From Lytechinus pictus (Eukaryota): DNA of 64,000 bases. Location of the stretch: contig NC_087250.1 of NCBI RefSeq assembly GCF_037042905.1, positions 20,028,001 to 20,092,000 of the forward strand, written 5' to 3'. Shown in pieces: positions 11,111 to 59,280 of this stretch (positions are counted from its first letter, which is position 1; each line of letters starts with the position of its first letter). Position numbers and translations under genes: made by a program. The notes beneath the pieces are model-generated. The model ran no database searches, had not been told where the DNA came from, and was given only the letters and a program-made list of their open reading frames with translations.

Positions 11111-11528
11111 ATACTATTAACGTCTATGGTAACCCCGTGGAACAGCCATTCATTTTCAATGTTTTCAGAATTTCCCGTCATTGGAAGAGGTTGACCCTTG
11201 CCCCCTTTTAGCAATACACCTGGGTTTAAGTATAGGCCTATGCAGGGGCGGATCCAGGATTTTCCAAAAGGGGGGGGGGGGCACATTTTTCCTAGGAAAA
11301 ATTTGACAAGCAAAAAAAAAGAAAAGAAAAAGGTCTTTACTTTCAAGGGGGTGGGGTACACTTCTGTTTTAACGGAATTTTTACATTACAAATGTTTATT
11401 TTGCTTCTCAAGGGGGGGGGGGGGGCACGGACCGGCTTTGCCCCCCCCCCTGGATCCGCCAGTGGTCTATGACATATTTTTGTAAAAAATGAAAATGACT
11501 AAGGTCTGTTTACATATGTTTTTAACAG

Positions 11529-11585
11529 CAAGCATTGAAGTACCACCCAGACAAAAACAGAGACGATCCCACTGCAGAAGACAAG
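11529..11585 (+). CDS. DNAJC5: DNAJC5-like exon 3 (HPD motif)
   Basis: taacAG acceptor; QALKYHPDKNRDDPTAEDK; GTAAGT donor. Confidence 0.95.
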
Positions 11586-12149: not shown

Positions 12150-14460
12150 GTTCAGTTCAGTTCAGTTCAATTTATTTATTTTCTCAGCATAAAAAAAGAT
12201 GATATATATACAATATGTACAAGAATGACAAATAGTATCAGAGAAAATTGGAAACTACAGAAAAGTTTATAAAAACTTGTGAGTAGTAGTTCCCAGTCCA
12301 TTGAATGAAAATGCACACACAGCATCAACAAACACCAGCAAACACACAGGGAGGGTGGGGCGGTAAATGTACGAGATTTCAGCAAGGAGAAAGGAAACAA
12401 ATTATATTGCATATTCATTTATATACATTCTTTTTAACTTAGATTTAAATGACGTAATTGTTGAGTATTTAATTTCATCGGGGAGATTATTCCAAATGCG
12501 TGGGCCATAATGCCTTAATGAATTTAGGAGAATTTGTGTTTTAACCTTGGGATAATGAAAATTATTACTTGAGCGAGTGTTGTGACAATGAACGGAATTG
12601 TTTATTAAAAACATACGGGATATATTAAAAGGAATTATGTTATGAATAGTACGAAACATCACAGATGCTATCTGAAATTTATGAATATCATATATATTAA
12701 GGGTATTGAGATTAAAAAACAAAGGTCGTGAGGGAGCTCTAAAAGGGGAGTTGGTACATATTCTTAAAATTTTCTTTTGCAATTTATGAAGGGGTTCCAA
12801 TTTTGTTATTCCAGCATTCGCCCAAATAATATTACAATATTGAAGATAGGATAGGGAAAGACAGTTATAAATCATAAATAACTCCTTCTGTGGCAAAAAA
12901 TTGCGAAGTTTAGAAAGAATACCAATATTTTTTTTAGATTTTGTTAGCTAAAATAGAACGGTGGCTGTTGTATGACAGTGTATCATCTAAAGTGATTCCG
13001 AGAAACTTGGTTGTTTTTTTAACAATTCAAGACGATTTGATTCAAAAATATTTTAACATCCGAAATATCATGTTTTATATGTTCTTTACTAATATACATA
13101 ACAGTTGTCTTTTCATAATTGAATACTAATTCATTAGCATGGAACCAGTTTATAATCTTAATTAATTCTTCATTTGTATTCTTAATAAGTAAATTAAAAT
13201 CACAATTGGACGCAACTAAATTTGTATCATCGGCAAAAAGGACAAAATGAAAAAAATGAGAAACATTACATAAATCATTGATATATATCAAGAATAAGAG
13301 CAGGCCCAGTGTGGAGCCCTGGGGGACTCCACAATGGACCCTCTCATGATGAGAAACAGCATTATTATAAACAGTATAATGAAAACGATCAGTTAAATAA
13401 TCTTTAAACCATTCAAGGGCAATGCCACGAATACCAAAATGAAATAGTTTACTAAGTAAAATATTGTGGTTGATAACATCAAAGGCTTTGCTTAAATCGA
13501 GAAAAATACCGAGTGTATGTAGATTATTAGCCATATTATTTAGGAGATGATCATTAAGGTCGATTAGTGCAAGCTCGCATGAGTAATTTGATCTAAAACC
13601 GTATTGTGAATTATTTAATAGATTATTTTTATCAATGTGCCGTATAAGCCTATTGTACATTAACTTTTCTAAGATTTTGGAAATACTAGGGAGTAAAGTG
13701 AAAGGTCTATAATTTGAAAATATATGCAAGTCCCCTTTTTTAAATACTGGAATAATTTTCCCTATTTTCATGTCCTTTGGGAATCTACCTGTTAAAAATG
13801 ATACATTAAAGATATGTGTTAGGGGTTTTGTTATGAAATGAATTACTTTTTTAATAACACACTGACTAATTCCATCAAATCCCATGCTTTTACTTGATTT
13901 AAAATGTTTTACTATTTCAATAATTTCATGTTCATTTGTAGGAAATAAGAATATAGAATTTTGACATTGGTTTGAGAGATAAGACAAAAAATTATTAGAA
14001 CGCTGGGGAATATTTGATTTGATATTGGTAGCTATATTAGCAAAAAATGTATTAAATTCTTCTACGATAATTTGATCATCAGTTATTTTAACACCATCTT
14101 TCAGGAAATAAGTGTTTAATTTATGTTTATTTGTAAAAAGAACCTCATTAATTATTTTCCACAACTTAGAAAGATTATTTTTATGTTTTTGCAACAAGTT
14201 ACTATAATATTGTTTTTTTGCCTTTTTTAGAACTAGGTTCAATTTATTTCGGTAAGATTTAAACTTCCTTTCAATTGTTTGATTTCTACTTTTGCAAAAA
14301 CGTTTATATAAATTGTCTTTTCAAAGACGAATTGGAAATAAACCGTATAGATACCATGTAATTTCCACCGGTTAAACCATAGAGCTATTAATAGCTCCAT
14401 GGTTAAACTATACATTCCAAAGATTTGAATAAAAAGGGCAACACGTACCAATATTTTGTA
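12150..14460 (-). mobile_element. CR1/L2-group LINE, 5'-truncated, antisense in DNAJC5 intron 3
   Basis: RT motifs NYRP, FLDLSKAFD, GVPQGS, LFADD in ORF 13019-14242; C-terminal part in 12402-12896; AATAAA plus (GAACT)n tail. Confidence 0.92.
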
Positions 14461-22747: not shown

Positions 22748-23930
22748 ATTGTTTACAGTAAAGTTAAGTGTGAAGTGAGGTCAGGTGTGGGGGATGAGTT
22801 TATTAGAGGGTGAAGAGGGTCGTTTATTGGTCGGCGTTTATACCACGTGGTCTTAATGTTTTGAGTTTGTGTATCCAATGAGATTCCCTTTTAATGATGG
22901 TGTCGTGTTTCTTGTTTTTTACTATTTTGATGGCAGTGATGTTAATGTTGTGTACTGTATGTCCGTTTACTTACTAGTAAACGCTAAATCACCACAAATG
23001 GAAACAGAAAATCACAACGGAAACAACCAAACAAATAATCATAACACCAGTGACACGACATGCACCTTTATCACAGACACGTCAACACCAGAGCTAGGGT
23101 TCTACAAATACAAAGCAAAAAAATGTTCACTTCACCATCACATCCAAGAAACAACCACATTCACAAGTTCAGTCACTGGACAAAAATTCAACATACGCGA
23201 TCACATAAACTGCAAATCCTCATGGGTCATCTACTTCCTAACATGCACTAAATGCAACATGCAATACGTTGGAAAGACTGAAACAACACTATACACACGA
23301 CTAAATAACACTAGATCAGAAGTAACTTATTACAACAAAAACAAACCCAACAGCAAAACCCTCCCATACACCATACATTTTAACCTTCCCGGGCATACAG
23401 TACACAACATTAACATCACTGCCATCGAAATAGTAAAAAACAAGAAACACGACACCATCATGAAAAGGGAATCTCATTGGATACACAAACTCAAAACATT
23501 AAGACCACGTGGTATAAACGCCGACCAATAAACGACCCTCTTCTCCCTCTAATTAACTCATCCCCACACACCTGACCTCACTTCACACTTAACTTTACTG
23601 TCAACAATGCACTATATACTTACGGACCTTACGGTAACTATATATTCTATACTTCGTTACATATTGACTCACCATTACCTTATATGAATAATTGGTTATT
23701 ATTTATGGACTATAATTACTTATCTCCGTTATATATGGCATTGTATATTATCATTGTTATTAGTAGGCCTATATTTTGTATTTTATATATTGGTTTAGAT
23801 CCTGATGAAGGGCATGTGTCCGAAAGCTTGATGAAGACAGGTATTGACCTTGCTACGGCCCTCTCCATACTCTTGATCTCGAATATAATTATGAAGGAGA
23901 CACGTACACGTACATCGCCAAGATTGATCA
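22748..23930 (+). mobile_element. 5'-truncated Penelope-like element (GIY-YIG endonuclease end) with inverted terminal copy
   Basis: ORF ending at 23531 has CKSSWVIYFLTCTKCNMQYVGKT...RLNN...HF...H...RESHWIHKLKTLRPRGIN. 22748-22965 is an inverted copy of 23390-23608. The element runs into (CA)n(TA)n. Confidence 0.88.
23798..23832 (+). ncRNA. Minimal type I hammerhead ribozyme in the Penelope 3' region
   Basis: ATC-CTGATGA-A-GGGC(ATGT)GTCC-GAAA-GCT-T-GAT: both core boxes, stem II, palindromic AGCT stem III, 3-bp stem I. Confidence 0.65.
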
Positions 23931-24043: not shown

Positions 24044-25203
24044 ACATATATATATTTATATACATAACATCACACTTTGCGTTCGCATTATTTATTTAGG
24101 CCCTGTGAGATACCTTCATTGTGTTTTTGAGAATAAATTTAAGATTTTCTGTAACTTTCGTCTGTAGACCGTAACAATTATCTTGGTGCCCCCTACCAAA
24201 GTTTAAGCCGCCCCCCCCCGTGCGCCCCTGCTGAATAAATCCCAGCTACTCAACTGATGAGGAGATTAAGTCGTTTGCCTCCGAGATTGCACTATTTCCA
24301 ATAGGTTATCAATAACATTATTGAAGAAAATTCTAAAACGATTCGTATGAAATGACAGCTCCCGCTCACACAATTCTAGTAAGCCGGGCCCCTCTATGAA
24401 ACCACCAATTGATTAAAACAGAAAATTAATGGATTTTTTTTTCATGAACACATATCATTAAAAAGAATCGGCATGCGTGTTACTCATGGCATAATCTAAG
24501 TTACTATAAGATCAACTTTCACGAGAAATCTCGTTACTAATTAATTATTGTTTCTTTTATTATTTTCTGTTTTTCAGTTTCACACAATCTCACCAGTTGT
24601 AATCGATTACCTGTACTGAACCAATTCATTAGAGCATGGATCTATGCTTATAGTTCAATTTCTATATTATATTTGTTTAATTTTCACAACTCATTAGCTA
24701 AAATTTAAGCATTTTATTTATATTACACATAATGATATATATTTTTAACATATTATATTATAATATAACAATGTAAATAAAAATTAATAACAATAAAAGC
24801 TATGCGATATTTACTAGCATAATTATTTATATAAGAGTATATATAATTTTAATATTCATACATCGATCATACTACGAAATTTAGCAAATTAACATTGGTA
24901 TTTTGGTAGTGGACTGCGTACGGTATGCATTCACTAATGTTAATACACTACTCAAAAAAACTTAAGGACCACTTTTTAAAACGTACATAAAGATTTTATA
25001 CAAGGTGTTTTATTTCTGGAAATACCTCAGTACAACTGTCCTAAATGTCCTTAAACACGCTGTAATCAATTTCACGCATGGGTGGTTTCAGTTGTTGCAC
25101 AATGTCTCTCGCATCACTGCACATCCTGAAAAGTGGGCCCCGAGGGGTATCAGCTACCGACATGAAGTGGTAAAAACGAATGTCTGAGTGTCTTTCAGGC
25201 AGT

Positions 25204-26232
25204 TCAGTAACGAGTGTGACCACCTCCTGCAGCAATAACGGCTTCACAGCGCTGTCTCATGGAGCTGATGAGGCGATTGATGTCTCTGACGTCCAGTGCA
25301 TCCCATGCAGCCTCCAGAGCCACACCCAGCTGCTGCAGTCCAAGTGGATGGGCTTCGAGCTGCTCGAGACTCCTCCCCATCATGTCCCAGACGTGCTCTA
25401 TCGGGTTTAAGTCCGGGGACCTCGCTGGCCACTTCATACGCTCAATCCCCTGGCCCTCAAGGAACTCGGTCACCACCCTAGCTCGGTGGGCACGGGCATT
25501 GTCATCCATGAAAATGATGTTTTGTCCCACATTTTCTGCAAATGGCACCACTATAGGTTCAAGGACCTCATCCCTGTACCTCACTCCTGTCATTGCTCCC
25601 CCTGGGACCACGTAGAGACGAGTACGGTTGGCGTAGGTGATGCCTCCCCACACCATGACGCTGCCTCCCCCATAACGGTCATGTTCTGCAATACAGGGGT
25701 CTGCAAATCTCTCTCCTGGTCGCCTCCAGACTCTCGAACGTCCATCATTGTGGTCAAGGGAAAATCTGCTCTCATCTGTGAACAGAACTCTACGCCATTG
25801 CTGTCTGGTCCATCTGACATGCTCCCGGGCCCAGTTGAGACGAATTCTTCTGTGAGCAGGGGTGAGTGGGACACACTGAGCTGGCCGTCTGGCATGCATA
25901 TTGGCTCTGTGAAGTCGGTTACGGATTGTTTGAGTGGAAACAATCACTCCAGTTGCTGCAGCGAAGTCATTGTTGAGGCGGCGTGCACTGTGAAAGCGGT
26001 TGCGGAGGCTGAGATTCGTCAAGTAGCGATCATCTCTAGGGGTTGTCGAAACTGGTCGGCCACTGCGGGGTCTCTCGGAGTATAGCCCTGTCTCTCGGTG
26101 TCTTTGATTTGCTCTGCTAATGACACTGTGTGACACGCCCATCATTCTGGCTACTCTTCGCTGACTGAGGCCAGCTTCCAGCATCCCTAGGGCTCTGGCT
26201 ACATCTGTTTCACTTAGGTGGTGTCTTGGCAT
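25204..26232 (-). CDS. Tc1-family transposase, left copy (342 aa from MPRHH)
   Basis: Paired-like HTH N-terminus with GRP; FTDE, DDNARAH and WPARSPDLNPIE motifs; 34 residues between second D and E. Confidence 0.93.
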   Translation of the reverse strand: MPRHHLSETDVARALGMLEAGLSQRRVARMMGVSHSVISRANQRHRETGLYSERPRSGRPVSTTPRDDRYLTNLSLRNRFHSARRLNNDFAAATGVIVSTQTIRNRLHRANMHARRPAQCVPLTPAHRRIRLNWAREHVRWTRQQWRRVLFTDESRFSLDHNDGRSRVWRRPGERFADPCIAEHDRYGGGSVMVWGGITYANRTRLYVVPGGAMTGVRYRDEVLEPIVVPFAENVGQNIIFMDDNARAHRARVVTEFLEGQGIERMKWPARSPDLNPIEHVWDMMGRSLEQLEAHPLGLQQLGVALEAAWDALDVRDINRLISSMRQRCEAVIAAGGGHTRY

Positions 26233-26563
26233 TGCTGTTGTAGGCAAGTTGTTGATTGTACAGACTAAAGACGGAAAATGCTTTGGAAGACACTTGTCTT
26301 ATGGCCCACTGCAATGATGCCAGAGACATCATGAAAGAACTGCATGTGTGAAATTGATGTCATTGTGTTTGATGGCATTCTGGACAGCTGTATCTTGGCA
26401 TTGCTATTGTCAGCAAGTTGTTGATTGTAGAGACTAAAGACAGAAAATGCTTTGGAAGCCACTTTTGTACGGGCACATTGCAATGATGCAAGAGACATGA
26501 AAGAACTGCACGTGTGAAATTGATTTCATTGTGTTTGATGGCATCCTGGACAGCTGGATAGCA

Positions 26564-27592
26564 ATGCCAAGACACCACCTAAGTGAAACAGATGTAGCCA
26601 GAGCCCTAGGGATGCTGGAAGCTGGCCTCAGTCAGCGAAGAGTAGCCATAATGATGGGCGTGTCACACAGTGTCATTAGCAGAGCAAATCAAAGACACCG
26701 AGAGACAGGGCTATACTCCGAGAGACCCCGCAGTGGCCGACCAGTTTCGACAACCCCTAGAGATGATCGCTACTTGACGAATCTCAGCCTCCGCAACCGC
26801 TTTCACAGTGCACGCCGCCTCAACAATGACTTCGCTGCAGCAACTGGAGTGATTGTTTCCACTCAAACAATCCGTAACCGACTTCACAGAGCCAATATGC
26901 ATGCCAGACGGCCAGCTCAGTGTGTCCCACTCACCCCTGCTCACAGAAGAATTCGTCTCAACTGGGCCCGGGAGCATGTCAGATGGACCAGACAGCAATG
27001 GCGTAGAGTTCTGTTCACAGATGAGAGCAGATTTTCCCTTGACCACAATGATGGACGTTCGAGAGTCTGGAGGCGACCAGGAGAGAGATTTGCAGACCCC
27101 TGTATTGCAGAACATGACCGTTATGGGGGAGGCAGCGTCATGGTGTGGGGAGGCATCACCTACGCCAACCGTACTCGTCTCTACGTGGTCCCAGGGGGAG
27201 CAATGACAGGAGTGAGGTACAGGGATGAGGTCCTTGAACCTATAGTGGTGCCATTTGCAGAAAATGTGGGACAAAACATCATTTTCATGGATGACAATGC
27301 CCGTGCCCACCGAGCTAGGGTGGTGACCGAGTTCCTTGAGGGCCAGGGGATTGAGCGTATGGAGTGGCCAGCGAGGTCCCCGGACTTAAACCCGATAGAG
27401 CACGTCTGGGACATGATGGGGAGGAGTCTCGAGCAGCTCGAAGCCCATCCACTTGGACTGCAGCAGCTGGGTGTGGCTCTGGAGGCTGCATGGGATGCAC
27501 TGGACGTCAGAGACATCAATCGCCTCATCAGCTCCATGAGACAGCGCTGTGAAGCCGTTATTGCTGCAGGAGGTGGTCACACTCGTTACTGA
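26564..27592 (+). CDS. Tc1-family transposase, right copy (342 aa)
   Basis: Same protein as the left copy except RRVARMM/RRVAIMM and RMKWP/RMEWP; uninterrupted ORF. Confidence 0.93.
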   Translation: MPRHHLSETDVARALGMLEAGLSQRRVAIMMGVSHSVISRANQRHRETGLYSERPRSGRPVSTTPRDDRYLTNLSLRNRFHSARRLNNDFAAATGVIVSTQTIRNRLHRANMHARRPAQCVPLTPAHRRIRLNWAREHVRWTRQQWRRVLFTDESRFSLDHNDGRSRVWRRPGERFADPCIAEHDRYGGGSVMVWGGITYANRTRLYVVPGGAMTGVRYRDEVLEPIVVPFAENVGQNIIFMDDNARAHRARVVTEFLEGQGIERMEWPARSPDLNPIEHVWDMMGRSLEQLEAHPLGLQQLGVALEAAWDALDVRDINRLISSMRQRCEAVIAAGGGHTRY

Positions 27593-28389
27593 ACTGCCTG
27601 AAAGACACTCAGACATTCGTTTTTACCACTTCATGTCGGTAGCTGATACCCCTCGGGGCCCACTTTTCAGGATGTGCAGTGATGCGAGAGACATTGTGCA
27701 ACAACTGAAACCACCCATGCGTGAAATTGATTACAGCGTGTTTAAGGACATTTAGGACAGTTGTACTGAGGTATTTCCAGAAATAAAACACCTTGTATAA
27801 AATCTTTATGTACGTTTTAAAAAGTGGTCCTTAACTTTTTTTGAGTAGTGTATGTTAGGATCGACAGGCATACCGTAAAGAAGTCGTTAAGTAGGACAGT
27901 TAATTCGTTGTAAGATGACTCCTCAAATGTCTGTTTAGATGTATGATGAAATATGTGACAGAAAATTCTGGAGTAAGTTGTGTAACTGCTGAGATAAAAA
28001 GCCAAACAAGCATGACATTCTTTCCACAGAACAATCATTTTCTTCGCCAAATTTTGCCTGAACGTGCAACACACGACATGCACGAAGGGGTTTCAGAAAC
28101 ACCATGTGTTACTTGCTTCGTTTTGCCAAAGTTGAGCAAAATAGTCAAAATTATGAAAAATGTTATGGTCACTAGAATAGTTATTTGTTAAAAAGTATTC
28201 TAATACTAGTACCTACTTGTATGTTTAAGATTATATATTAATTTACTAAATAATTTGGCAGTGAATCTCGTACGTTATGAGATCACTAAATTAAAGAAAA
28301 TGAAAGCTTTGGAATGATCAAGATAATTTGTGCAAAATCAAAAAATCAAAGAAACCGATCTATAATTGAGTTAATAATGAGAAAGTTGA

Positions 28390-30888: not shown

Positions 30889-31067
30889 ATGTGTGTTTGA
30901 TTTTGTTTTAACAGACTTTTAATAGTCAGAGATGTTTATTATGGGAAGACCTTTAACGCCACCATCCGGAAGACGTGACCAGGGCTTGAACCTCGAACTT
31001 CTGTATCAATTCGTAACTTCACCATGTAGCTAGGATTACAGGCGCACATTACAACGTTGAACACTAG
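30889..31067 (-). mobile_element. SINE-like element with 7SL-like head, copy A (more diverged)
   Basis: Minus strand: GTAATGTGCGCCTGTAATCCTAGCTAC...GGTTCAAGCCCTGGTCACGTCTTCCGGATGGTGGCGTTAAAGGTC; colinear with copy B. Confidence 0.65.
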
Positions 31068-31631
31068 CAAGTGATACACAACACACAGATCGTTCCCACT
31101 TTAAAAAGACTGGGCTATCTTGAAACGCCGAAGACGGGGGGAGGGGGGGGGGGGAGACTTCGACTGCGCAATCACGACGAAAATCGGCATGCATGTTACT
31201 CATGGCATAATCTACGAAACTATAAGATCAACTTCTATGAGAAATCTCGTAACTAATTAATATTGTTTCTTTTATTATTTTCTGTTTTTCATTTTCACAC
31301 AATCTCCCCTGTTCTAATCGATTACTTGTAATGGATCAATCGATTATAGTTCAATTTCGTTATTTTTTAAAAATATTTTTCACGACAGCTCGTTACCAGT
31401 AGAATGTGGGATTTTATATATCATATATATTTATATATTTTAACATCTTTAGGCTAAGATAACAATGTAAACAAATCGTTTATAACAAAAAAAATATGTT
31501 ACTCACTAGCATAATTATCTATTTAAAAATAAATAATTATGATATTGTTTCGAATGTTACATTAATCTTAATCTTATAATTTAATTTAACATTATTTTGG
31601 CAGTGGACTGCATATGTTTGAAGTTCACTAC

Positions 31632-31802
31632 GTGTGTGTATTTCAGTTGTGTCAGACGTGTATCAATCAGATATGATTATTTACGTCTGGGACCGACCTT
31701 TAACGTCACCATCCGAAAGACGTGACCGGGGTTCGAACCTCTGCATCAATTTGTAACTTCCCCACATAGCTTGGATTACAGGCGCACGCCACATCGAATA
31801 AC
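31632..31802 (-). mobile_element. SINE-like element with 7SL-like head, copy B
   Basis: Minus strand: GTGGCGTGCGCCTGTAATCCAAGCTA...GGTTCGAACCCCGG-TCACGTCTTTCGGATGGTGACGTTAAAGGTCGGTCCC...(CA)n. Confidence 0.7.
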
Positions 31803-33274
31803 TAGGATAGGTAAACATACTAATAAGAAATCGTCAAGTCGGACAGTTAACTTTATCAATTGACTATCCAAATGTCTGTCTGAATGATGAAATAACAGAA
31901 GATTCTGGATAAAATTGTGTAACTGATAAGATAAAAAGACAAACAAGAATGACATTTCACAAACTTGTCGGGACCTTTCCACTCCAATGATAATACACTG
32001 TTCCACGTAGGATTTATTTTTCAATTTACATTATACTAATACATTTATGTAATATTGACTGGTATTGAGGGGAATATCAAATATGTCGCCCGCAACAGAA
32101 GTCCTTAGACGAGGGCAATATGGTTCTTTTAAGGGCAACATATTTCCCGGAAGAAGACCCAGTCAATATTATTATTATCACCTAAGGCTGTACAATGTGT
32201 AATTCAAGCAATTATAAATTTTGGAACAATTTAAATGCATGTTTGCTAATCACTACCGGGATCACTACTTCTGATTTTAGGTTATTCACGAACTTAGCGA
32301 AGTACCCTTAATATTTGTGACGTATTTACCTTGCAGTCGCGCACGCGCACATGCACTGAACACGTAGAAATCATGCAATTGGGTTTGTTATGCCGGGACG
32401 TGCATTATCTACAATGTGTTGATTCATAAACTGGTTCCAGCCAGTTTTCTCAAACACTGAAATTAGCGATCAAAATCGAATCCTACTGCGCAATGCATTA
32501 GCAAAAATATGGCCAATATTGCCTTCTGTTTTGTACAGGATTTCTATAGGCAAAGCCCGAGGAGGGCAACATGGCAAATGTTTACCTCGTTGGTTTCGGA
32601 TTCAAAGTAGCGAGCGAAATATGGCTTTTATTTATCTCCTAAAATGCCTTGTATCGGTATAAAAACCGTTCTTTGGCCTCAGTAATAAATGCATCGATAA
32701 CCTGTGTTGACTCAATCGATTATAGTTTAATTCCATTATTATGAAAAAAATCTCACGACAACTCGTCATCTAAAGTTTTGGGTTTTTATATCACATGTTA
32801 AAAAAAAAATAAAAAAATTGATTTAAAAGAAAGCAAACGTTCTATTTAAGAAGAAAAAATAGTCACTAGCATAATTATTTTTAAAGATTATTATGAATAA
32901 TGACATTGGATCATACTATGAAACTACCTAACTATATACTGTTATTATTATTTTGGCAGTGAACTGCATACGTTATAAGTTCACTAATAGGAAGATAGTC
33001 AGGTATATTTTGAAAAGGTTGTCAAGACAGGATAGTTAACATTATAAGATGTCTCTCCAAATGTCTGTTTGTATAAATGATGAAATATGTGACAGAAGAA
33101 TCTGGAGAAAATTGTGTAACTGCTGACATAAAAAGCCAGGCAAGCATGACATTTCACAAACTAGGCGGGACATTTTTACTCCTATAATAATACACTGTTC
33201 CATGTGGGATCTTTTTTCACCTTATAATTCATAATCACACAAAGTTCGGTTTATGCACTTGTGCCAGATTTAAA

Positions 33275-33850
33275 TCTATGGTGACACCACATCTGATTTG
33301 TTGAAAACAAGACTGTTCATTGTTAATTGTTACCATTTGCTTCCGATTTGAAAGATAGCTTTCAAAAAGTTTTAGTGTTATTCCCCTTATCCCATATAAA
33401 TTCAGTTTATTTAACAATATGCGATGATCTAAAGTATCAAAAGCCTTTGATAAATCCAAAAATAACCCAATCATTATCTCTCCATTATCTATTGAATTTA
33501 CAACCTTATGGATAAGATTAACCAGTGCAGAAGAAGTAGAATGACCTGCTCTAAAACCATATTGGTTATTGCTGATAGTATTGCACATAGATATGAAATT
33601 ATATAAACGATAAATACACCTCTCAAGTATTTTGGAAAATATTGTTAAAACAGATATTGGACGATAATTAGTCATGAATTCAGGTGTACCATTTTTAGAA
33701 ACAGGGGTAACTCTCGCTAATTTCATTTGATCAGGAAAAATTCCCAGTTGAAAACACTGATTGAATATTGCACATAATGGGTTAACAATTAAATGTATTA
33801 CACGCTTCACAACTTTAACATTAATTCCATCAAAACCGGCACTTGTCTAC
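33275..33850 (-). mobile_element. CR1/L2-group LINE RT fragment
   Basis: NYRPIS...QYGFR...FLDLSKAFD. Confidence 0.85.
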
Positions 33851-40370: not shown

Positions 40371-41216
40371 AATACGGCCTATAATCCAAATTAATTCTGC
40401 TTAAACAGATATTTGACCTGCTGATTAACTGCTGGAATCAGTAATGCCTATACATAATGTACAGGGACTAACCGGTTCTAGTGAGCAACAGGCTCAGATT
40501 AGAGTAATTTTTGTTGTCTACTTGATATATGTACGACATACTGAGGATCTCTTGATATGTGTTTAAATCACGGCAGGTGATCATTGAAAAGCCCCTTTTC
40601 ACCAAGTTGTCCAGATAAAAGAGCAATCCTGCTTGAAGGTCTGCAAGTAGACTATTGTGTTATCTGCCCCATTGCCCTTGCATTGGTATGATAAAAAGTA
40701 AAAAAAACCTTGCAACAACATAGGAAAATTGCCAGAATTGCAGATAGAAACTTTGATAGATCATTGTGATTTACATATTTAAGTAGGTACCCCATACAGT
40801 AATTAGCTTTTGAGTTCACAATCACTACAGTTAGGAATTATATTTGCCTTACTGATAAATAATTTCGTTTCCCATTGCAGACACTTTAAGACTTATTGGT
40901 TGGTCTTAGATATGTATTACCCTTCCTTAAATGTTATATGATAAAATGTTCCAAATAACAAACTAAATGATATTGTCAATAATGCACATTTCCTCTCTCA
41001 TTTCCGTACGCACCGAAAAGTTACATTATTAGACTGAAAATTTTCACAAAATTCACCAAAAGTGCGCATGATATCCTTCAATTTACTATGAAAAAGCGCC
41101 CCTTGCCAAACTCAGTCGCTTCGCTCCCTTGCTTTGTTTCTTAGAGATTTTTTTAGTCGTCTTGCCGCCCCAAGGACAAATTTTCTGCATACAGCCATGC
41201 CCTCTCTCAATATGCC

Positions 41217-43876
41217 AATTTACCACTAACAGAAAATCAAATTATAAAAAGGTTCCACTCCACCCTTGGATTACTAAATCACTTTTGAGATCAATCAACC
41301 GAAAGAACAACCTTTACTATAAATACATAACTAAACAAAGTAACGAATCTCGCTTTAAATATACTTCATACAAAAACACACTCACTACTTTATTACGCAT
41401 TGCAAAAAGAGAATATTATACCTCCCAACTTAATTTGTTCAAAAACGATATGAGGAACACATGGAAAATCATTAATGGAGCATTAAATGAAAACAAAAAA
41501 AGTACTTCTATAACAAAAATAAAAGTAAACAATACAACTACCGACGACAACATCTCAATAGCACAAGAATTTAATTCATATTTTTCAAACATTGGCAACA
41601 ATCTGGCAAGCAAAGTCCCTAAAACTCATAAATCTTTCAACAGTTTTCTTGACAACCAAAATCCAAACTCTATATTTTTTAATCCTACGAACACAAGATA
41701 AATTATTAATATTGTTAATAATCTACAGACCAAGAAGAGCACAGGTTTCGATGGTATTCCTAACTTCCTACTTAAGAAAATTATTTTAACTATCGTCGAT
41801 CCTCTGGTCCACATATTTAATGTTTCTATGAACACAGGGAAGGTACCTAACCTAATGAAAATAGCCAAAGTCATCCCCCTTTACAAAAAAAGGTGATAAT
41901 CAACTTGTTTCTAATTACCGTCCTATTTCATTGCTCACTTCGTTATCTAAAATTCTCGAAAAACTTATACATACTCGTACAATTACGTTCTTTAATAAAT
42001 TCAATACTTTTTCGAACTCGCAATTTGGTTTCCGCGAAAATCATAGCACCTCGCATGCAATTTTGACTTTTATTAATAAAATTACTTCTTCCATAGATAT
42101 AGGTTGTCATACTGTTGGTATTTTCCTGGACTTCTCGAAGGCCTTCGATACCATTAACCACGATATACTTCTTCATAAACTTTCTTTTTATGGTATCAGG
42201 GGGAAGGCCTTGGAGTGGTTCAAGAGCTACCTAACAGACAGGTCTCAATTTGTGTCAGTCAACAACGTTGTTTCTTCTACTCTTCCTATTACATGTGGAG
42301 TACCACAGGGTAGTTTACTTGGTCCTCTTTTTTTTATTACATATATTAATGACATTAAAAAAAGTTCAAATTTACTAACATTTGTATTGTTTGCTTACGA
42401 TTCGAACATTTTCTTTTCTCATGATAACGTAAACCAACTTGTAAGAATTGTAAACTCAGAACTTATACATGTCACTGACTGGATTAAGGCGAATAAACTA
42501 TCACTTAACTTACAAAAGACGAATTTTATGCTTTTTAGTAACAGAATAAATACAATACCTGATAACATAATTTTTGATAATACTGTTCTTGAAAATGTTT
42601 CAGATACAAGATTTTTGGGGGTTACTATCGATAATAAGCTATCATGGAAACCACACATCAATAATACATGCAAAACAATTTCAAGAAACATCGGAATTAT
42701 CAACAAACTCAAATATTTTTTCCCATCTCACACTTTACTTACACTGTATCATACGTTAATATTACCATACATTAATTATGGCATTTTGGCATGGGGTTGT
42801 GCGATCCAAACACAATTACAAAGAATACTGTTGCTGCAGAAGAAGGCTCTTAGAATAATTTTTCAAACCCAATTCAGATCACACACAGATATACTATTCT
42901 TCCAAAATAATATTCTTAAAGTGAGTGATTTATATCTTTTCCAACTCGCCCAATTTATGTATAAACTAAACAAAGATGATCTCCCAACAATTTTTTCAAA
43001 TATGTTCTGTAAAAAACTCCTCTATACACGATTACCCAACGAGACAACGTAATTGTTATCACCTACCCCCTACCCGTACTATATTAGCGAAAAACTATTT
43101 TATCTTTTTTGGACCTGCGTATTGGAATTCCCTGCCCAACGACTTTAAAGAATCTACAAACCTTAATATTTTTAAACGCAAACTTAAAAAGATGCTCATT
43201 TGTCAATACTCCACACCAACAAGTCAAGCTAACACATAACCTAAACTAAAACTACATAATAACCTTTAACTGCCAATAAATTTGTCAAACTTTACTTAAA
43301 AAAACAACAACAACACTACAACATGATACAATACATTACGACCTGTGCACCTGCCATGTTCCTCTTTTCATTTGCACTTTTTATTTGCACCTCCCTTATC
43401 TCCCTCTTTCTTTCCTTTGCCACTTTTCCCTCCCTATTATGATTTTGTAAGTACTTTTTTTTGTGTTACCACTGTAATTATTATTATTTGAATTACTTTC
43501 TCTTATTTTTGTTGTCGCTTATTCGTTTTATTTTGATATTTGTGGATTACTTGTTTTAAGTTTGTCTTCTGTGTCCGTCTCGATTTTTGTATAGAGTTGT
43601 ATATATAGTTTGTTTATAATTAGTATTGAAACTAAGTTTAGGGGCTTGCCTTCTCTACAAGCTTTTGCTTTTCTTGGCAAGTCCCTCCGTTCATTTCTTG
43701 TTTCTTTTCATTGATAATATTACTGCAACAAATTGTAGTTTTGTTTAATTTATATTCAACATCTGTTACAAAATTTCATTGATTTGTCTGTATTATCGAT
43801 TATATTGAATATGTATTGTTACTTTGATTATATTTTGAAAAAAATGTTGAACGGAAATAAAATCTAAATCTAAATC
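41217..43876 (+). mobile_element. CR1/L2-group LINE, 5'-truncated and frameshifted
   Basis: PWIT, FLDFSKAFD, GVPQGS, LFAYD (catalytic D lost); AATAAA plus (AATCTA)n tail; candidate TSD TATGCC at 41211 and 43877. Confidence 0.9.
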
Positions 43877-44239: not shown

Positions 44240-47200
44240 TGTAGTAGTTTTCTTTTCATCAAACACTGATTTCAACATGATCAGAGCTTGATCACTACTT
44301 TGTTTACAATGATCATGCAAAGACAGCTGATTTACAACTTAATTAATTCTTTTGATGGAGCACTCCTCAGTTAGCCTATTCAACTTGATTCTTTTGTGCA
44401 CCTACTGGCCCAGTCATCCTTTATTCAAGATGTTCACACAACAGCCAGGAATTCTTTCATGTTCTTTCGTCTTCTACTTCTAGTTCAGAGTTGTCACAAC
44501 TTAGACAGCAAGTAGACAGACTTACATTTCAAGTGCAATCATTGACTACGCAACTTCAACATGAACGTGGTCGATCTCCAAATAGGCGCCCTCATCGTCC
44601 AAATAGACAACGTAGCAGGAGTAGCAGTCAAAAGCGTCCTCTCTGTTGGTATCACTGGAAGCATGGTGCAGGAGCTCGCAAGTGTACACCGCCATGTAAC
44701 TTTAATCACGCTTCTTTGTTTTCGAGTGATTCTCAACAGCCTTCTTCCAACACTCATGCTCAGGGAAACGACAGAGCCAGCCGGGATTGAGAGCGACGAC
44801 CCGTGCTGGTGCTAAGAATAAGAATGGTCGCTTGTTCTACATTCATGATCGGATCAGTGGTACTCAATTTTTAGTAGATACTGGAGCTGAAGTCAGCATA
44901 ATCACGCCATTTGCAGTTGACAGACAACGGCATACACATTCAGAGTTCACATTGGAAGCGGTTAACGAGTCTCGCATTCCTACGTATGGTGAACGCTCCA
45001 TCACTTTGGACTTGGGCCTTCGAAGGACTTTTCGTTTTGTTTTTGTGATTGCCGATCTTCCTACACCCATTATTGGAGCCGATTTCTTGAATGAATTGGA
45101 CTGGTTGTAGATGTTAAGCATCGAAAACTTCTTGACTCCACTACAAAGCTCACGATCTACGGCATCCGTGCTCCACTTCAGACGCAGTCTGTCAGTCCTA
45201 TGTTTTCACGTTCATCGACTACAGGCAGTGATGAGTATAACGCCATCTTAAAGGAGTACCCAGACATCACTCGTCCTGACTATCGCCCCAAAGCTGTCAA
45301 ACATTCTGTTACGCACCACATTGTAAAGACAGGACCTCCATGTTCCGCACGTCCACGTCGTTTAGCTGCTGATCGCCTGACAATAGCACGTTCTGAGTTC
45401 GAACATATGCAGGAACTGGGGATCGTTAGACTGTCGAGCAGCAATTGGGCATCCCCGCTCCACATGGCTCCCAAATCTACACCAGGTGATTGGCGCCCAT
45501 GTGGGGATTACCGTGCTCTTAACGCTCGAACTGTACCAGATCGCTACCCAGTCCCACATATCCAGGACTTTACAGCATCATTGAATGGCAAGAAGATCTT
45601 TTCGAAGATAGATCTCGTCAAGGCATACCATCAGATACCCGTTGAACCATCTGATATACCGAAGACGGCAATTACCACACCCTTCGGACTCTTCGAGTTT
45701 ACGCGAATGCCTTTCGGACTTCGAAATGCAGCCCAATCCTTCCAGCGTTTGATGGACGAAGTGGTCAGGGGCTTGCCTTTTGTCTTTGTGTACATCGACG
45801 ACATGCTAGTTGCTAGTGCAACAGAGGAAGAGCATAAAGAACATCTCCGACTTCTTTTTGCTCGCCTTCACGAGTATGGTATTGTGATCAACCCTGCCAA
45901 GTGTGTGTTTGGTGTGAGCTCTCTCATCTTCTTGGGACATCACATCAGCGCAGATGGCATTCGACCCCTCGAGAAGCGCGTAGAGGAGATCCGCGAATTT
46001 GCTCGTCCTTCTTCTATTCGACAGCTCCGTCGTTTTCTAGGACTTGTCAATTTTATCGACGATTTATCCCCAAGGCAGCAGCTATCCTCTCACCACTTAC
46101 CGACATGCTCCGTGGTCAGCCGAAGAGATCAACCAAGGCAGTTGAGTGGACGGAAGAGCGCATCAGTGCATTCGAGCGTGCGAAGGAGGAACTCGCAAAT
46201 GCTGCTTTGCTTGTACATCCTTCGATAGATCTCCAAACTAACTTGATGGTTGATGCATCAGATGTAGCAGTCGGTGGCGTCCTTCAACAGTACGCTGATG
46301 GTATTTGGAAGCCAATTGCGTTCTTTTCACAGCGACTCAAACCTACCGAAACTAGATACAGCACTTTTGGTAGGGAATTATTAGCTGTTTACCTCACGAT
46401 TCGCCATTTTCGCCATTTCTTAGAGGGACGCGAGTTCACAGTCTACACGGATCATAAGCCGTTGACCTACGCTTTGCGATCGAAGCCTGACCGTCACTCT
46501 CCAAGAGAAATCCGCCAGCTGGACTATATCTCGCAGTTTACATCAGACATTCAGCATGTACACGGTGTAGACAACACAGTAGCTGATGCCTTGTCTCGAC
46601 TGCATGTGGATGCTCTTCACACATCATTTACTGTTGATTTTGATCAGATTGCAGCCGACCAAATTGATGATGAATGGGAAGAGATACAGAAATCAACTTC
46701 ACTGACATTTAAGCAAGTACCACGGCCTTCAAGCGACGGAATGATTTTGTGCGATGTCTCTACAGACCACGAGAGACCTTACGTCCCGAAGAAACACCGC
46801 CGCATGGTATTTGAAGCGTTGCATAATATGTCACATCCTGGTGTACGCTCTACCCAAACAATGATTACTTCACGTTTTGTTTGGCCAAGTATGAACAAGG
46901 ACATACGTACATGGGCTCGTTCATGCCTATCTTGCCAGCGCTCTAAGATCCACCGACATATCAAGGCACCACTTGGAACCTACACTGCGCCAGACGCCAG
47001 ATTCAGTCATATTCATGTAGACTTAGTCGGTCCATTGCCTTTGTCAAATGGATATTGTTACATGTTAACCTGTATTGATCGGTTTACAAGATGGGCCGAT
47101 GCTTTCCCAATATCAGACATTACAGCAGAGACTGTCGCCAAGACACTTGTGCATGAGTGGATTTCCCGATTTGGCGCACCCTCGACCATCACCACGGACA

Positions 47201-48336
47201 GTGGTAGGCAGTTTGAATCGCAACTCTTCCAAGCACTCACTTCACTTCTTGGGAGCTCTCGTACACGCACCACTGCGTATCACCCTGCGGCCAATGGTAT
47301 TGTGGAAAGATTCCATCGTCAGCTCAAAGCAGCACTTCGAGCGCAATCTGATCACAGCAAATGGCAAGAGTTTTTGCCGATCGCACTTTTGGGCATACGC
47401 ACAACGGTAAAAGAGGATCTTGGATGTACACCAGCAGAACTGGTGTATGGAACTACACTGAAGGTTCCAGGTCAGCTGGTGGCACCAACAACTCCAGACT
47501 CTTTCTCCAACCCAGGCGACTATGTTCATCGCCTTCGCAACTATATGATTGACATCAACCCTGCACGAACACGTTCTCAAACTACTACATCGCATGTTCC
47601 ACCTGATTTGCAAGATTGCTCGCATGTATTTATCAGGTGTGATGCTGTCCGGCCGTCACTTCAACCGCAATATGATGGACCTTACAGAGTTGTTAGTAGG
47701 ACGCCAAAGTTTTTTTATTTTGGATGTGAAAGGGAAGAATGATTCCGTCAGCGTTGATCGTCTCAAGGTTGCTCATCTGCCATCTACTACAAGCATGGAC
47801 AATTCATTTCTACATCATGCATCATTTTCATCGCTACCTACTCCTACTACCTCTACTCCACCGGTGCGGACAACCAGATCAGGTCGCCGCGTCCATTTTC
47901 CAGCTCGTTTTGCCCAGTTTTCCAATGGATGAAAGGACATCTTACATTATCATGGGACCAATGCTTTGTATCGATCAACTTAACTCTTGTTCGTTGATCT
48001 AGGAGGGGAGTACTGTAGTGGTTTTCTTTTCATCAAACACTGATTTCAACATGATCAGAGCTTGATCACTACTTTGTTTACATTGATCATGCAAAGACAG
48101 CTGATTTACAACTTAATTAATTCTTTTGATGGAGCACTTCTCAGTTAGCCTATTCAACTCGATTCTTTTGTGCACCTACTGGCCCAGTCATCCTTTATTC
48201 AAGATGTTCACACAACAGCCAGGAATTCTTTCATGTTCATTTTCTAAGCCATGGAATGCTCCTGTCTATTTCTAAGTGGATGTTTTTCTCACTTAGCAAC
48301 TACTAGCCAGTCAGATTTAAGCTGAGAGCAACCTCA
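44240..48336 (+). mobile_element. Gypsy/Ty3 LTR retrotransposon (CsRn1-like), internally deleted and frameshifted
   Basis: Repeats 44240-44464 and 48014-48238 start TGTAG and differ at ~4 sites. PPT AGGAGGGGAG at 48001. Gag end CWYHWKHGAGARKCTPPC, protease FLVDTGAE, RT YIDD, RNase H DASD, integrase. 3' LTR end at 48336 is inferred from CA plus flanks GGGTT/TGGTT. Confidence 0.92.
44787..47932 (+). pseudogene. Gypsy pol (PR-RT-RH-IN) broken by frameshifts
   Basis: Domains are split over ORFs 44787-45110, 45200-46228, 45901-47742 and 47549-47932. Confidence 0.9.
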
Positions 48337-56019: not shown

Positions 56020-59000
56020 CTAAGTTTGGTTTGGTTTATTTTTATTTTCATATCTCATAAAATATCAAATACAATGTAACGTCCATCGAAAGACAGTTAA
56101 TCATTGATAATAAAATAATACAATACATCACCATAATTCATAATAAATCAGACAAATGTTATACAATTGAACGTTTGGATTGGAGACAGATATATCAATA
56201 AGATGAGAATATGAAGGGCAAACTATCTAAAAGCAGAGCTTGTAATTTATAGTTTCCCTATTAATAAAATTATAAGTAATTGTCAACTTGTTTTAATATC
56301 AATATGTTACAAGAAAAGAAAGAGAAAGAGAGAGAGAAAAAAAATATATATATTTCTTTAAAAAAACGAGAGAAAGAAGGAGACAAAAAGAAAAAAACAA
56401 AACAAAGGGAGGTGGACTGACATTAGTTAAGAGGAACACTAGGGAGCCGATGAATTGTCGTTTAGATATTAGTTTAAAATAAAAAAAATCAATTTACGTT
56501 TAAAAGTATATATAGAATTGCAATCTTTGAAGTCGGTTAGTAGATCATTCCAAAATAATGGACCTGTGACAATAATTGTTTTATGTGAAAAAGCTGTACG
56601 AGTACCTGGAAGATGATAAAATGACTTTGACGGGTAGGATAGCTGTGAATCTTGTCATTCCTTCTAAATAGAGAAGATACGGTGGTCATGGTGGTAGGTA
56701 ATTCTTTTCTTGAGAGTTGAAACATAAATATTCCAAGGTTAAATGCATAAAGATCATGGATTTGTAGAACATTAAGTACATGAATAAAAGAGTGGCATAG
56801 AATGAGCCCGGTAACTTGTATTATTAATAATTCTTATTAGTCTTTTTTGGATAAGTAAAGTTTTATTGATATGAAGTTTTGAACTGTTCCCCCAAGAAAG
56901 GATACCGTAATTTAAATACGGCAAAATTAGGGTGGAGTATAAACATAACAAGACACGGGTGGGAAAAGATGACTTAAGTTTGCAAATGACGCCAGTATTT
57001 CTGGATATGATTTTACTAAATGTGATTAATGTGGGCTTTTAAAGTTAATTTACTGTCGATATATCCGCCAAGAAATTGTGTCGTGTCAACCTTTACAAGA
57101 GGTGTGTTGTTTAAAAATACAGGTCCGGGTAAATTAGCGATCGTATTACTGAATAAGAGATAATTTGATTTATTGATATTTAGAGACAATTTATTGAAAT
57201 GTATCCAGTTAAGAACAAAAAATCAGTCTATGATTTAGTGTTTGTAAGAGAGTTTGATGGTTTTGTGAAAGATAAATATATTGGAGTCATCTGCAAACAG
57301 AAGGAATGAAAGAATATTAGAACAATTTTGAAAGTCATTAATGTAAATGAGAAATAATAAAGGGCCTAGTAAAGACCCCTGTGTCACTCCGCATGTAATA
57401 AGTTTGTATGAGATTCTTGATTGTTAATACATACAAAATGCTGACGGTTATATATATAACTTCTGAACCACTCCAATGCCTTTCCACGCATTCCATAATG
57501 TGATAATTTGAAAATAAGAATGTCATGATTAATTGTATCAAAGGCCTTGGAGAAGTCCAGAAATAAACCAACAGTATGAGAAAAAGCGTCTATTGATGTA
57601 GCTATTTCATCTATAAACATTAATAATGCATGGGTAATTGAATGTTTCTTTCTAAAACCAAATTGAACCTTCAATAAAATATTATATTTACTTAGAAAAT
57701 CAACAGTGCGGGAGTATATTAATTTTTCGAGAATTTTGGAAAAAGAGCTTAAAAGCGAAATGGGACGATAATTTCCAATATCATGTTTATTACCTTTCTT
57801 ATGTATCGGTATGACCTTTGATATTTTCATTTTTTCTGGTACTACCCCAGTTATTAAAGATAAGTTGAATAAATAAGTTAGCGGTTGTACTATTTCATTT
57901 ATAGTCTTCTTCAAAAGAATATTCGTAATATTATCTTACCCATAGCTTTTTTTAGTTTTCAAATCTTTAACAATGATCATAATTTCACGAGAAGTAATGG
58001 GAGTAAAAATATAAATTGAACGTTCGGTTCTTTTAAAAACGATCAAAAATCAACATCGGAATTTGGAATGTCGCGGGCATGCAAGATTTGGGCCAATATT
58101 GATGAAATAATCATTAAATGTTTCAGCAATCAACATTGGATTTCTATTTTCGGAGCTGTTGATCATAATTGTAGAAATAGATGGTGATTTTCTTTTTTTT
58201 TTATTTAGAACATTGTTTATCACCTTCCACGTACGTGAGACATCATATCTGTTTTCTTCAAATTGTCTATAGAAAAATAATTCTTTTTAGCGGTCCGAAG
58301 TAAAGTAGTAAGGGTATTGCGATATGAAGAATATCGACGTTTACTTTGATCTGATTTAATTTTTTTGTGCTTATAAAAGAGACGATCTTTCCGGTTAATA
58401 CAACGAAGAAGAGACATAGTGATCCAGGGAGATCTCGGAGATTTTTTTTGTAGTTCCGAGATGAAGACTTCAATGGAATGTTGGTATTATACAAATTAAG
58501 AAACCTGTTAACAAAAATATTATATGCTTCATTTGGGTCGGAATTTATGTACACCTGGGACCAGTCGGCTTGTGCTAAACATTCTCTAAATTTGTATAAA
58601 TTGTCTTCAGAAAAGTTACGGGTCATAGACCTGGAGCAGTCTATGATATGGTCGGGGGTGGGGAAAAAGTAAATACTGGGAAGTGATCAGACATATCACT
58701 GATAATAATTCCGGAACTTAAGCAATGATCACGATTTATAAAAAATGTATCTATAAGGGTTGAAGATACATCAGATATTCGAGTGGGTTTGTTAATTAAG
58801 GGTAAAAACGATTTCGAAAGCATTATATCATAAAATTGTTGACATACATTACACGAGTTACATTTCAAGAGATCTAAGTTAAAATCTCCCATGATAAAGC
58901 ATACTTTATTTTCTAGAGTTGGTGCAGATAAAAGACCCTCAAGTAATTCATAAAAATCAAGAGGATTTGCTTGAGGTGGTTTATAAATTTCCCCGAAGAC

Positions 59001-59280
59001 AATATTTTCCCCTCTTGGGACAATAATTTCAACAAAAACAGTTTCAGCAAGGTTTGACATTTGATTTAATTCCTCTAAAGACTTCGTTTGAAACTGGTTT
59101 AAGACGTACAATCCCACACCTCCACCGGTTTTGTTTTTTTCTATTATTCCCAAAGTATGAATACCTATCTAAAAGATGTAATGGACTTATGGCTTCACTT
59201 CACATAATGCCATAAAACAAAAATATGCGAGAAAATTTCTATATTCTTTTAATTATGTTGAGTCATGAGAAAATTCATTT
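56020..59280 (-). mobile_element. Degraded CR1/L2-group LINE (APE endonuclease + RT)
   Basis: GGGVGLYV, MGDFN and SDHFPV in 58641-59153; FLDFSKAFD in 57384-57914; many frameshifts; (CCAAA)n-type tail. Confidence 0.88.

Follow-up and report, generated by a model that had tools for sequence, protein, structure and literature searches.

Two minus-strand copies of a short interspersed element (SINE) lie in the stretch of DNA analysed here, a 64-kb window of the Lytechinus pictus genome (64,000 nucleotides; contig NC_087250.1, positions 20,028,001 to 20,092,000 of the forward strand). We regard the element as a non-autonomous retroposon of about 180 bases, and very probably as a chimeric SINE whose head is the 5′ Alu domain of 7SL, the RNA of the SRP (signal recognition particle). 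A chimeric 7SL-headed family was what the original prediction had proposed, and the proposal is supported: a 7SL-like part (family positions ~2–47) is followed by a tRNA-type half, a Nin/Deu block and a CA tail, and the family is present in many copies. What is observed are these sequence modules, one clean insertion, and sharp-ended copies that are numerous in three organisms. The window itself is repeat-rich animal DNA (GC 37%, CpG observed/expected ratio 0.70) with reading frames of long interspersed elements (LINEs), Gypsy and Tc1-like elements, and the label "invertebrate" for the SINE family rests, within this analysis, on that CpG ratio.

The two predicted copies of roughly 170 bp were found at 30889–31062 and 31631–31802 (hereafter copies A and B). 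Compared with nhmmer, which was also used to search the window for further copies, they are 74.7% identical over 166 columns (E ~1e-26). No third copy was found above threshold in the 64 kb, the next match having an E value of 0.11. At ~172–180 bases the element is shorter than 1 kb, and it is interspersed and not in tandem, with sharp ends and different flanks, as SINEBase describes a SINE. No run of four T was found inside either copy. Judged by sequence alone, the internal A-box region resembles that of 7SL SINEs, and the B box resembles that of printed tRNA heads. The parts of the two copies are given below, where loose ends are the points at which aligned contigs run into other sequence.

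31631..31802, minus strand: copy B, whole SINE, alignable from 31796, with 31802 as the expected place of family position 1
31756..31802, minus strand: copy B 7SL-like head, family positions 1–47 (5′ Alu domain with A box), from the Rfam alignment, hagfish SINE1 and loose ends at 31793; first 6–9 bases worn or truncated
31742..31755, minus strand: copy B linker of 14 bases, also in copy A, from the copy–copy alignment
31719..31741, minus strand: copy B tRNA-type 3′ half with B box, from likeness to SINE2-1_SP and loose ends at 31741
31689..31721, minus strand: copy B 5′ block of the Nin/Deu central domain (Inv-like part only), from Lsa_Nin_1, Pan_3 and hagfish Deu SINEs
31653..31689, minus strand: copy B 3′ stem-loop, with an outer stem of 7 bp and an inner one of 6 bp, a candidate LINE recognition signal, from folding against shuffles
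31631..31652, minus strand: copy B A/C-rich end with a short CA repeat, from sequence and loose ends at 31632 and 31653
30889..31062, minus strand: copy A, whole SINE, more diverged, above all in the tail, from the copy alignment; lower contig cover
31016..31062, minus strand: copy A head, family positions 1–47, with several G-to-A and C-to-T changes, from sequence comparison
30972..31001, minus strand: copy A tRNA-type half with a doubled 7-base unit and one change in the B box, from the copy alignment and contigs
30943..30974, minus strand: copy A Nin/Deu 5′ block, from the copy alignment

The 26-base 7SL-like segment that had been picked out in copy B was recovered at 31792–31767, where 24 of 25 model positions are identical to the consensus of Rfam Metazoa_SRP (RF00017, a 299-position model with a gathering score of 70 bits). 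This consensus and the printed hagfish element SINE1-1_EBu were the references for the head. Identities against Rfam, hagfish, tRNA-SINE and Nin sequences were counted by eye on the printed sequences. Copy B also contains an exact 20-mer of the SINE1-1_EBu head (31792–31773), for which the chance expectation in the window is ~3e-6. The Rfam model matched copy B with 10 bits (E 0.72) and also with 8.8 bits over model positions 1–44, the match being to the 5′ part and not to a full 7SL gene. An Rfam scan of 1.9 kb returned no SRP match and four chance hits. As evidence for a 7SL head, the window copies alone are suggestive, not decisive.

Contigs from public sequencing runs extend this comparison to the family. 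A search among such runs listed 24, which come from three coded organisms apart from one that carries no label; no run on record as RNA was among those listed. Each shared 4–7% of the window's words (0.04–0.07) and none shared half of them, and therefore the runs are probably not from the window's own species. Contigs of four runs were aligned to the window at 80% likeness, namely X2 and X22 from organism A, X10 from organism B and X14 from organism C. That X22 is an RNA run is a guess, and transcription cannot be read from contigs. Among the rows listed, beyond which there were 883 further rows, loose ends cluster at 31793, 31741/31733, 31653 and 31632. At 31793 the plus-strand loose letters start ACGCCCAG in all four runs (62, 8, 64 and 20 records). 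Read on the minus strand, these loose ends give family positions 2–9 and place position 1 at 31802. The ninth loose letter is also identical in the four runs and could be AT-rich flank. Family positions 2–30 match SINE1-1_EBu without gaps at 27/29 positions (binomial 1e-14) and the Rfam consensus, likewise ungapped, at 25/29. By these references the 5′ part is 7SL-derived, as in the definition of SINE1 (Kojima 2020), with the likeness starting at 7SL position 2. The likeness stops near base 47, and nothing beyond resembles the SRP model.

Compared by eye with the Rfam structure line, the head keeps six of the eight pairs of the first hairpin (the consensus itself has seven) and the three pairs of the second helix, and neither the two loops nor the U-turn segment is disrupted. 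In the closing helix, positions 1–3 pair with 45–47 (31758–31756); pairing is kept by a change on both sides at position 3, and perhaps by another at position 1. The host 7SL gene may itself carry such changes.

Downstream of the linker, the tRNA-type B box that had been predicted is present in copy B at 31739–31730. The segment 31739–31719 shares 19 of its 21 positions with the SINE2-1_SP head as printed, or 17 of 21 when the majority letters of the contigs are used. The region is unlike printed 7SL B boxes, so that the B box is not one from 7SL; its motif is generic to tRNA SINEs and gives no taxon. The doubled 7-base unit is present in the family and in copy A, one unit having been lost in copy B. 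No tRNA gene was found by ARAGORN, no Rfam tRNA match was obtained at E ≤ 10, and no cloverleaf with D and anticodon arms was seen.

A segment resembling the Deu/Nin central domain had also been described. The likeness holds at copy B 31721–31689, which matches the starts of the mollusc domains in 25 of 33 columns (Lsa_Nin_1) and 24 of 32 (Pan_3) with one gap, but only about the first 33 bases of the domain are alike, and the remainder of the printed Nin domain is absent. A similar block begins the central domain of hagfish Deu SINEs. This 5′ part of the Nin domain is known as Inv. The following hairpin of copy B (31689–31653) is more stable than most of its shuffles (z −2.8, 5/200), and the single variant within it, among the variants listed, sits in an unpaired bulge. 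As for the predicted (CA)n tail, a CA run exists, but it has just 3–4 units in the window copies and is longer in the contig loose ends. Records running into other sequence at 31632 number 110 (X2), 88 (X10) and 32 (X14), and plus-strand TG runs occur in the loose ends at 31632 or 31653 in these three runs. The family therefore ends in a CA repeat whose length varies.

The family is abundant in the contigs. Summed depth over the body of copy B was 0.7–1.1 million in X2 and 0.36–1.3 million in X10, with 0–58 in neighbouring bins; copy A is covered less than copy B. Taking a depth of 20–60 as single copy would give ~10^4 copies in organisms A and B, an estimate that was not used since depth is no copy number. 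Three variants, at 31717, 31744 and 31662, account for 63%, 64% and 25% of the depth in X10 but for less than 1% in the other three runs. Common in organism B and rare in A and C, they indicate that subfamilies differ by lineage, which points to separate amplification. Scans with element patterns found no stretches in metagenome, viral or prokaryote genome contigs. Contigs of each of the four runs cover a further many-copy repeat, at 31159–31281 between the two SINE copies.

Copy B is a clean insertion into an older repeat, as two paralogous sites lack the insert. The features concerned are as follows.

31182..32023: older host repeat interrupted by copy B (flanks 31182–31630 and ~31797–32023), with paralogs 67–81% alike
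32693..33219: SINE-free paralog of the host repeat, an empty site with the junction near 32987, from paralog comparison

The second empty site is the paralog at 24466–24936 plus 27878–28019, which is without the ~170-base insert at the same junction. Two Tc1-like transposase copies sit in this paralog, within ~10 bases of the equivalent of the copy B junction. They occupy 24943–27853 as a perfect inverted pair of 1294 bases, 323 bases apart, and proteins 99% identical are present in public assemblies. Either the insertion is very recent, or the site is a hot spot for insertion, or the pair is an artefact of assembly.

Several observations weigh against the 7SL-headed SINE as set out above. The scores of copy B on the SRP model (10 and 8.8 bits) stand against a gathering score of 70. 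The Alu-domain-like opening that had been described for both copies holds for copy B, through its Rfam and hagfish matches, but the first 6–9 bases are worn or missing in both, and copy A gave no Rfam SRP match at E ≤ 10; the Rfam comparison thus yielded a weak 5′ match for one copy and none for the other. In energy folding the heads of the window copies did no better than shuffles (117/200, 15/200 and 109/200) and the Alu fold was not recovered. The 5′ extension is a loose-end consensus from other organisms' contigs aligned at 80% likeness, and the first 15 bases also match the head of the tRNA-derived SINE2-2_SP (12/15). An origin from the host's own 7SL is a proposal drawn from likeness to hagfish and Rfam sequences. 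SINEBase asks for a stretch of 60 bases or more that is alike to tRNA, 5S or 7SL at an identity of 60% or higher (PMC3531059); the 7SL-like part, though of high likeness, spans ~47 bases and the tRNA-like part ~25–30, and neither alone reaches 60. The 3′ hairpin was not seen in copy A (107/200 shuffles).

No convincing target-site duplication was found at either copy: the flanks of copy A, which is worn, show none, and at copy B, also worn, the duplication is 4 bases at best and is not cleanly supported by the empty sites. Alternatively, the copy B junction can be read as a duplication no longer than 1 base in a copy truncated by 6 bases at its 5′ end. With regard to a partner LINE, no accepted match to the SINE tails was found among the six retroelement 3′ regions in the window (0/6 for copy B). 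The tail of copy A beat all 200 shuffles against 11362–11403 in one of 18 comparisons; this match was rejected, being AT-rich, 1 kb past the LINE end and absent for copy B. Decayed LINE copies with reverse transcriptase frames lie at 12402–14320, 33235–33846, 41072–43052 and 57384–59168, two of them ending in short pentamer repeats.

The origin that we consider most likely is that an older Nin/Deu-type SINE had the 5′ half of its tRNA head exchanged for the first ~47 bases of 7SL RNA. Transcription by Pol III (RNA polymerase III) would, as the sequence suggests, likely proceed from the 7SL-derived A box together with the tRNA-derived B box. It is moderately likely that a stringent-type LINE, probably of the CR1/L2 clade, would then recognise the 3′ stem-loop and CA tail through its reverse transcriptase, and as likely that this LINE would copy the SINE by target-primed reverse transcription; 3′ stem-loop recognition is common for stringent SINE/LINE pairs. 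The LINE partners of Deu SINEs in sea urchin are of the CR1 type (PMC3747384), and a head exchange much like the one proposed is known from those Deu SINEs that acquired a 5S rRNA head (PMC4758252). The chances seem evenly balanced that the head would fold as a 5′ Alu domain, bind SRP9/14 and take the RNA to ribosomes making the LINE protein. In human cell extracts SRP9/14 is bound by the 46-base 5′ Alu domain, a minimal unit that Alu needs in order to move, and such a truncation has been argued to have failed in evolution for lack of a B box (PMC12199147). Taken at its fullest, our proposal is tentative and falls somewhat short of an even chance: an uncatalogued, independently born invertebrate 7SL SINE, amplified separately in several species, which may be a natural minimal 46-base Alu domain rescued by a borrowed tRNA B box and using both SRP9/14 docking and a stringent non-L1 LINE.

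A serious contender, to which we would give a little under half the weight, has the same origin but treats the 7SL head as an A-box promoter piece only, with no role for the Alu fold or SRP9/14 in mobility. The 3′ strand of the Alu domain is missing, the head pairings are lost in both window copies, the 3′ stem-loop could suffice for LINE recognition, and the pairing retained in the family may be mere inheritance from the host gene. Set against this, the 7SL likeness ends near base 47, the minimal size for SRP9/14 binding, though the A box needs only the first ~15 bases.

It is also possible, if rather unlikely, that the family is real but already catalogued in Repbase or Dfam, perhaps as a tRNA SINE or an unnamed repeat. 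The organisms in which it abounds have had many public runs since 2011, and Repbase holds about eight sea urchin SINE2 families, of which the heads of two were compared. Nevertheless, 7SL SINEs are recorded only in supraprimates, hagfish and shrew mole as far as the excerpts of the relevant papers extend (PMC7245038, 2020; PMC10886601, 2024; PMC13023118, 2026), and two motifs of the element were not found printed in the literature searched. No report of an invertebrate 7SL SINE was found in that literature, the search lying outside Repbase, Dfam and the SINEBase supplements, and the head motif was not found in the published supplements searched, with one supplement file left out.

That an ordinary tRNA-derived Nin/Deu SINE has drifted to a chance likeness to 7SL in its head appears very improbable. 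The tRNA-type B box and 3′ half, the first-base match to SINE2-2_SP and the Rfam scores below threshold would all fit such drift. As the first 15 bases fit both origins, it is positions 16–47 that separate them, and these have no collinear counterpart in five printed tRNA or tRNA-SINE heads, from which a deletion of ~10 bases and an insertion of 25 would be needed. Moreover, positions 2–30 align ungapped to a known 7SL SINE, and neither ARAGORN nor Rfam found a tRNA. Overall, positions ~2–47 are far more 7SL-like than tRNA-like.

Least probable of all is that the element is part of a DNA transposon, a Helitron or a solo long terminal repeat, a one-off chimeric 7SL retrocopy or human Alu contamination. 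A clear target duplication is lacking and the insertion site is AT-rich, but no transposon or Helitron ends were seen on the copies (no inverted repeat at the ends among the best 25 of 574 pairs), the CA run at the 3′ end varies in length, the modular structure recurs in thousands of contigs from three organisms, and the SRP model finds no likeness past base 47. We likewise rejected horizontal transfer from hagfish, as sharing is limited to the universally conserved part of 7SL.

With a chimeric 7SL-headed SINE as the preferred reading, the element can be set beside known families. The original prediction, which named Alu, B1 and a hagfish report, missed the precedents of shrew-mole Urop and tree-shrew Tu (PMC13023118). 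The papers of 2020, 2024 and 2026 regard 7SL SINEs as rare and confined to vertebrates, and all 7SL SINEs are said to arise via a central deletion that keeps both 7SL ends (PMC13023118); in the window element, 5′ and 3′ 7SL segments joined over such a deletion were not found. SINE1-1_EBu of the hagfish Eptatretus burgeri is alike in its 7SL head fused to an older tRNA-SINE lineage, its microsatellite tail and its non-L1 partner. However, it has 96 bases of 5′ 7SL, a 3′ 7SL segment, a 7SL B box and an RTE-derived tail (PMC7245038), and no sequence in common with the window element was seen past ~base 47. Alu, B1 and Urop also begin with the 5′ Alu domain of 7SL, but are 7SL throughout, with a central deletion of ~183 bases, a poly(A) tail and an L1 partner (PMC13023118), whereas the window element has only ~47 7SL bases followed by the tRNA-type B box, Nin/Deu block and CA tail. 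The element agrees with the SINE1 definition but lacks the 3′ 7SL segment and 7SL B box, which places it outside the lineages of Alu/B1, Urop and SINE1-1_EBu.

Tree-shrew Tu, known by description only, has a leftmost unit said to be of dual 7SL/tRNA origin, but is multimeric, L1-driven and derived from supraprimate SINE1 (PMC13023118, PMC7245038). Deu/Nin SINEs (SINE2-3_SP, by description; hagfish SINE2-6/-7_EBu; Lsa_Nin_1) share the first ~33 Nin/Deu bases and the tRNA-type B box (PMC5804259, PMC4758252, PMC3747384, PMC7245038), and the 5S-headed SINE3/AmnSINE1 have similarly swapped their head for another Pol III RNA (PMC4758252). Unlike these, the window element has a 7SL head rather than a 5S one, lacks the rest of the Nin domain and measures ~180 bases. 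Lastly, SA46, an engineered minimal Alu domain, carries the same 7SL span at the 5′ end of a retrotransposing RNA, but is without a B box where the window element has a tRNA-type one (PMC12199147).

Other elements were noted in the window. A Gypsy-type element at 44240–48241 has terminal repeats of 228 bases that are 98% alike and frames for reverse transcriptase, RNase H and integrase. At 22790–23565, inverted arms of 176 bases surround a GIY-YIG-like frame that is Penelope-like and below the Pfam cut-off. A short exon with good splice sites lies at 11528–11585 on the plus strand, and reads like what we take to be part of a DnaJ domain (HPD motif); therefore, part of the window may be intron.

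The family points to a second route to 7SL SINEs, in which only the 5′ Alu domain is taken and the B box is borrowed from a tRNA SINE. The claim that a 46-base piece of 7SL failed only for want of an internal promoter (PMC12199147) becomes testable in nature, and the family offers a means of probing whether a SINE benefits from SRP9/14 docking when its LINE reads a 3′ structure and not poly(A).
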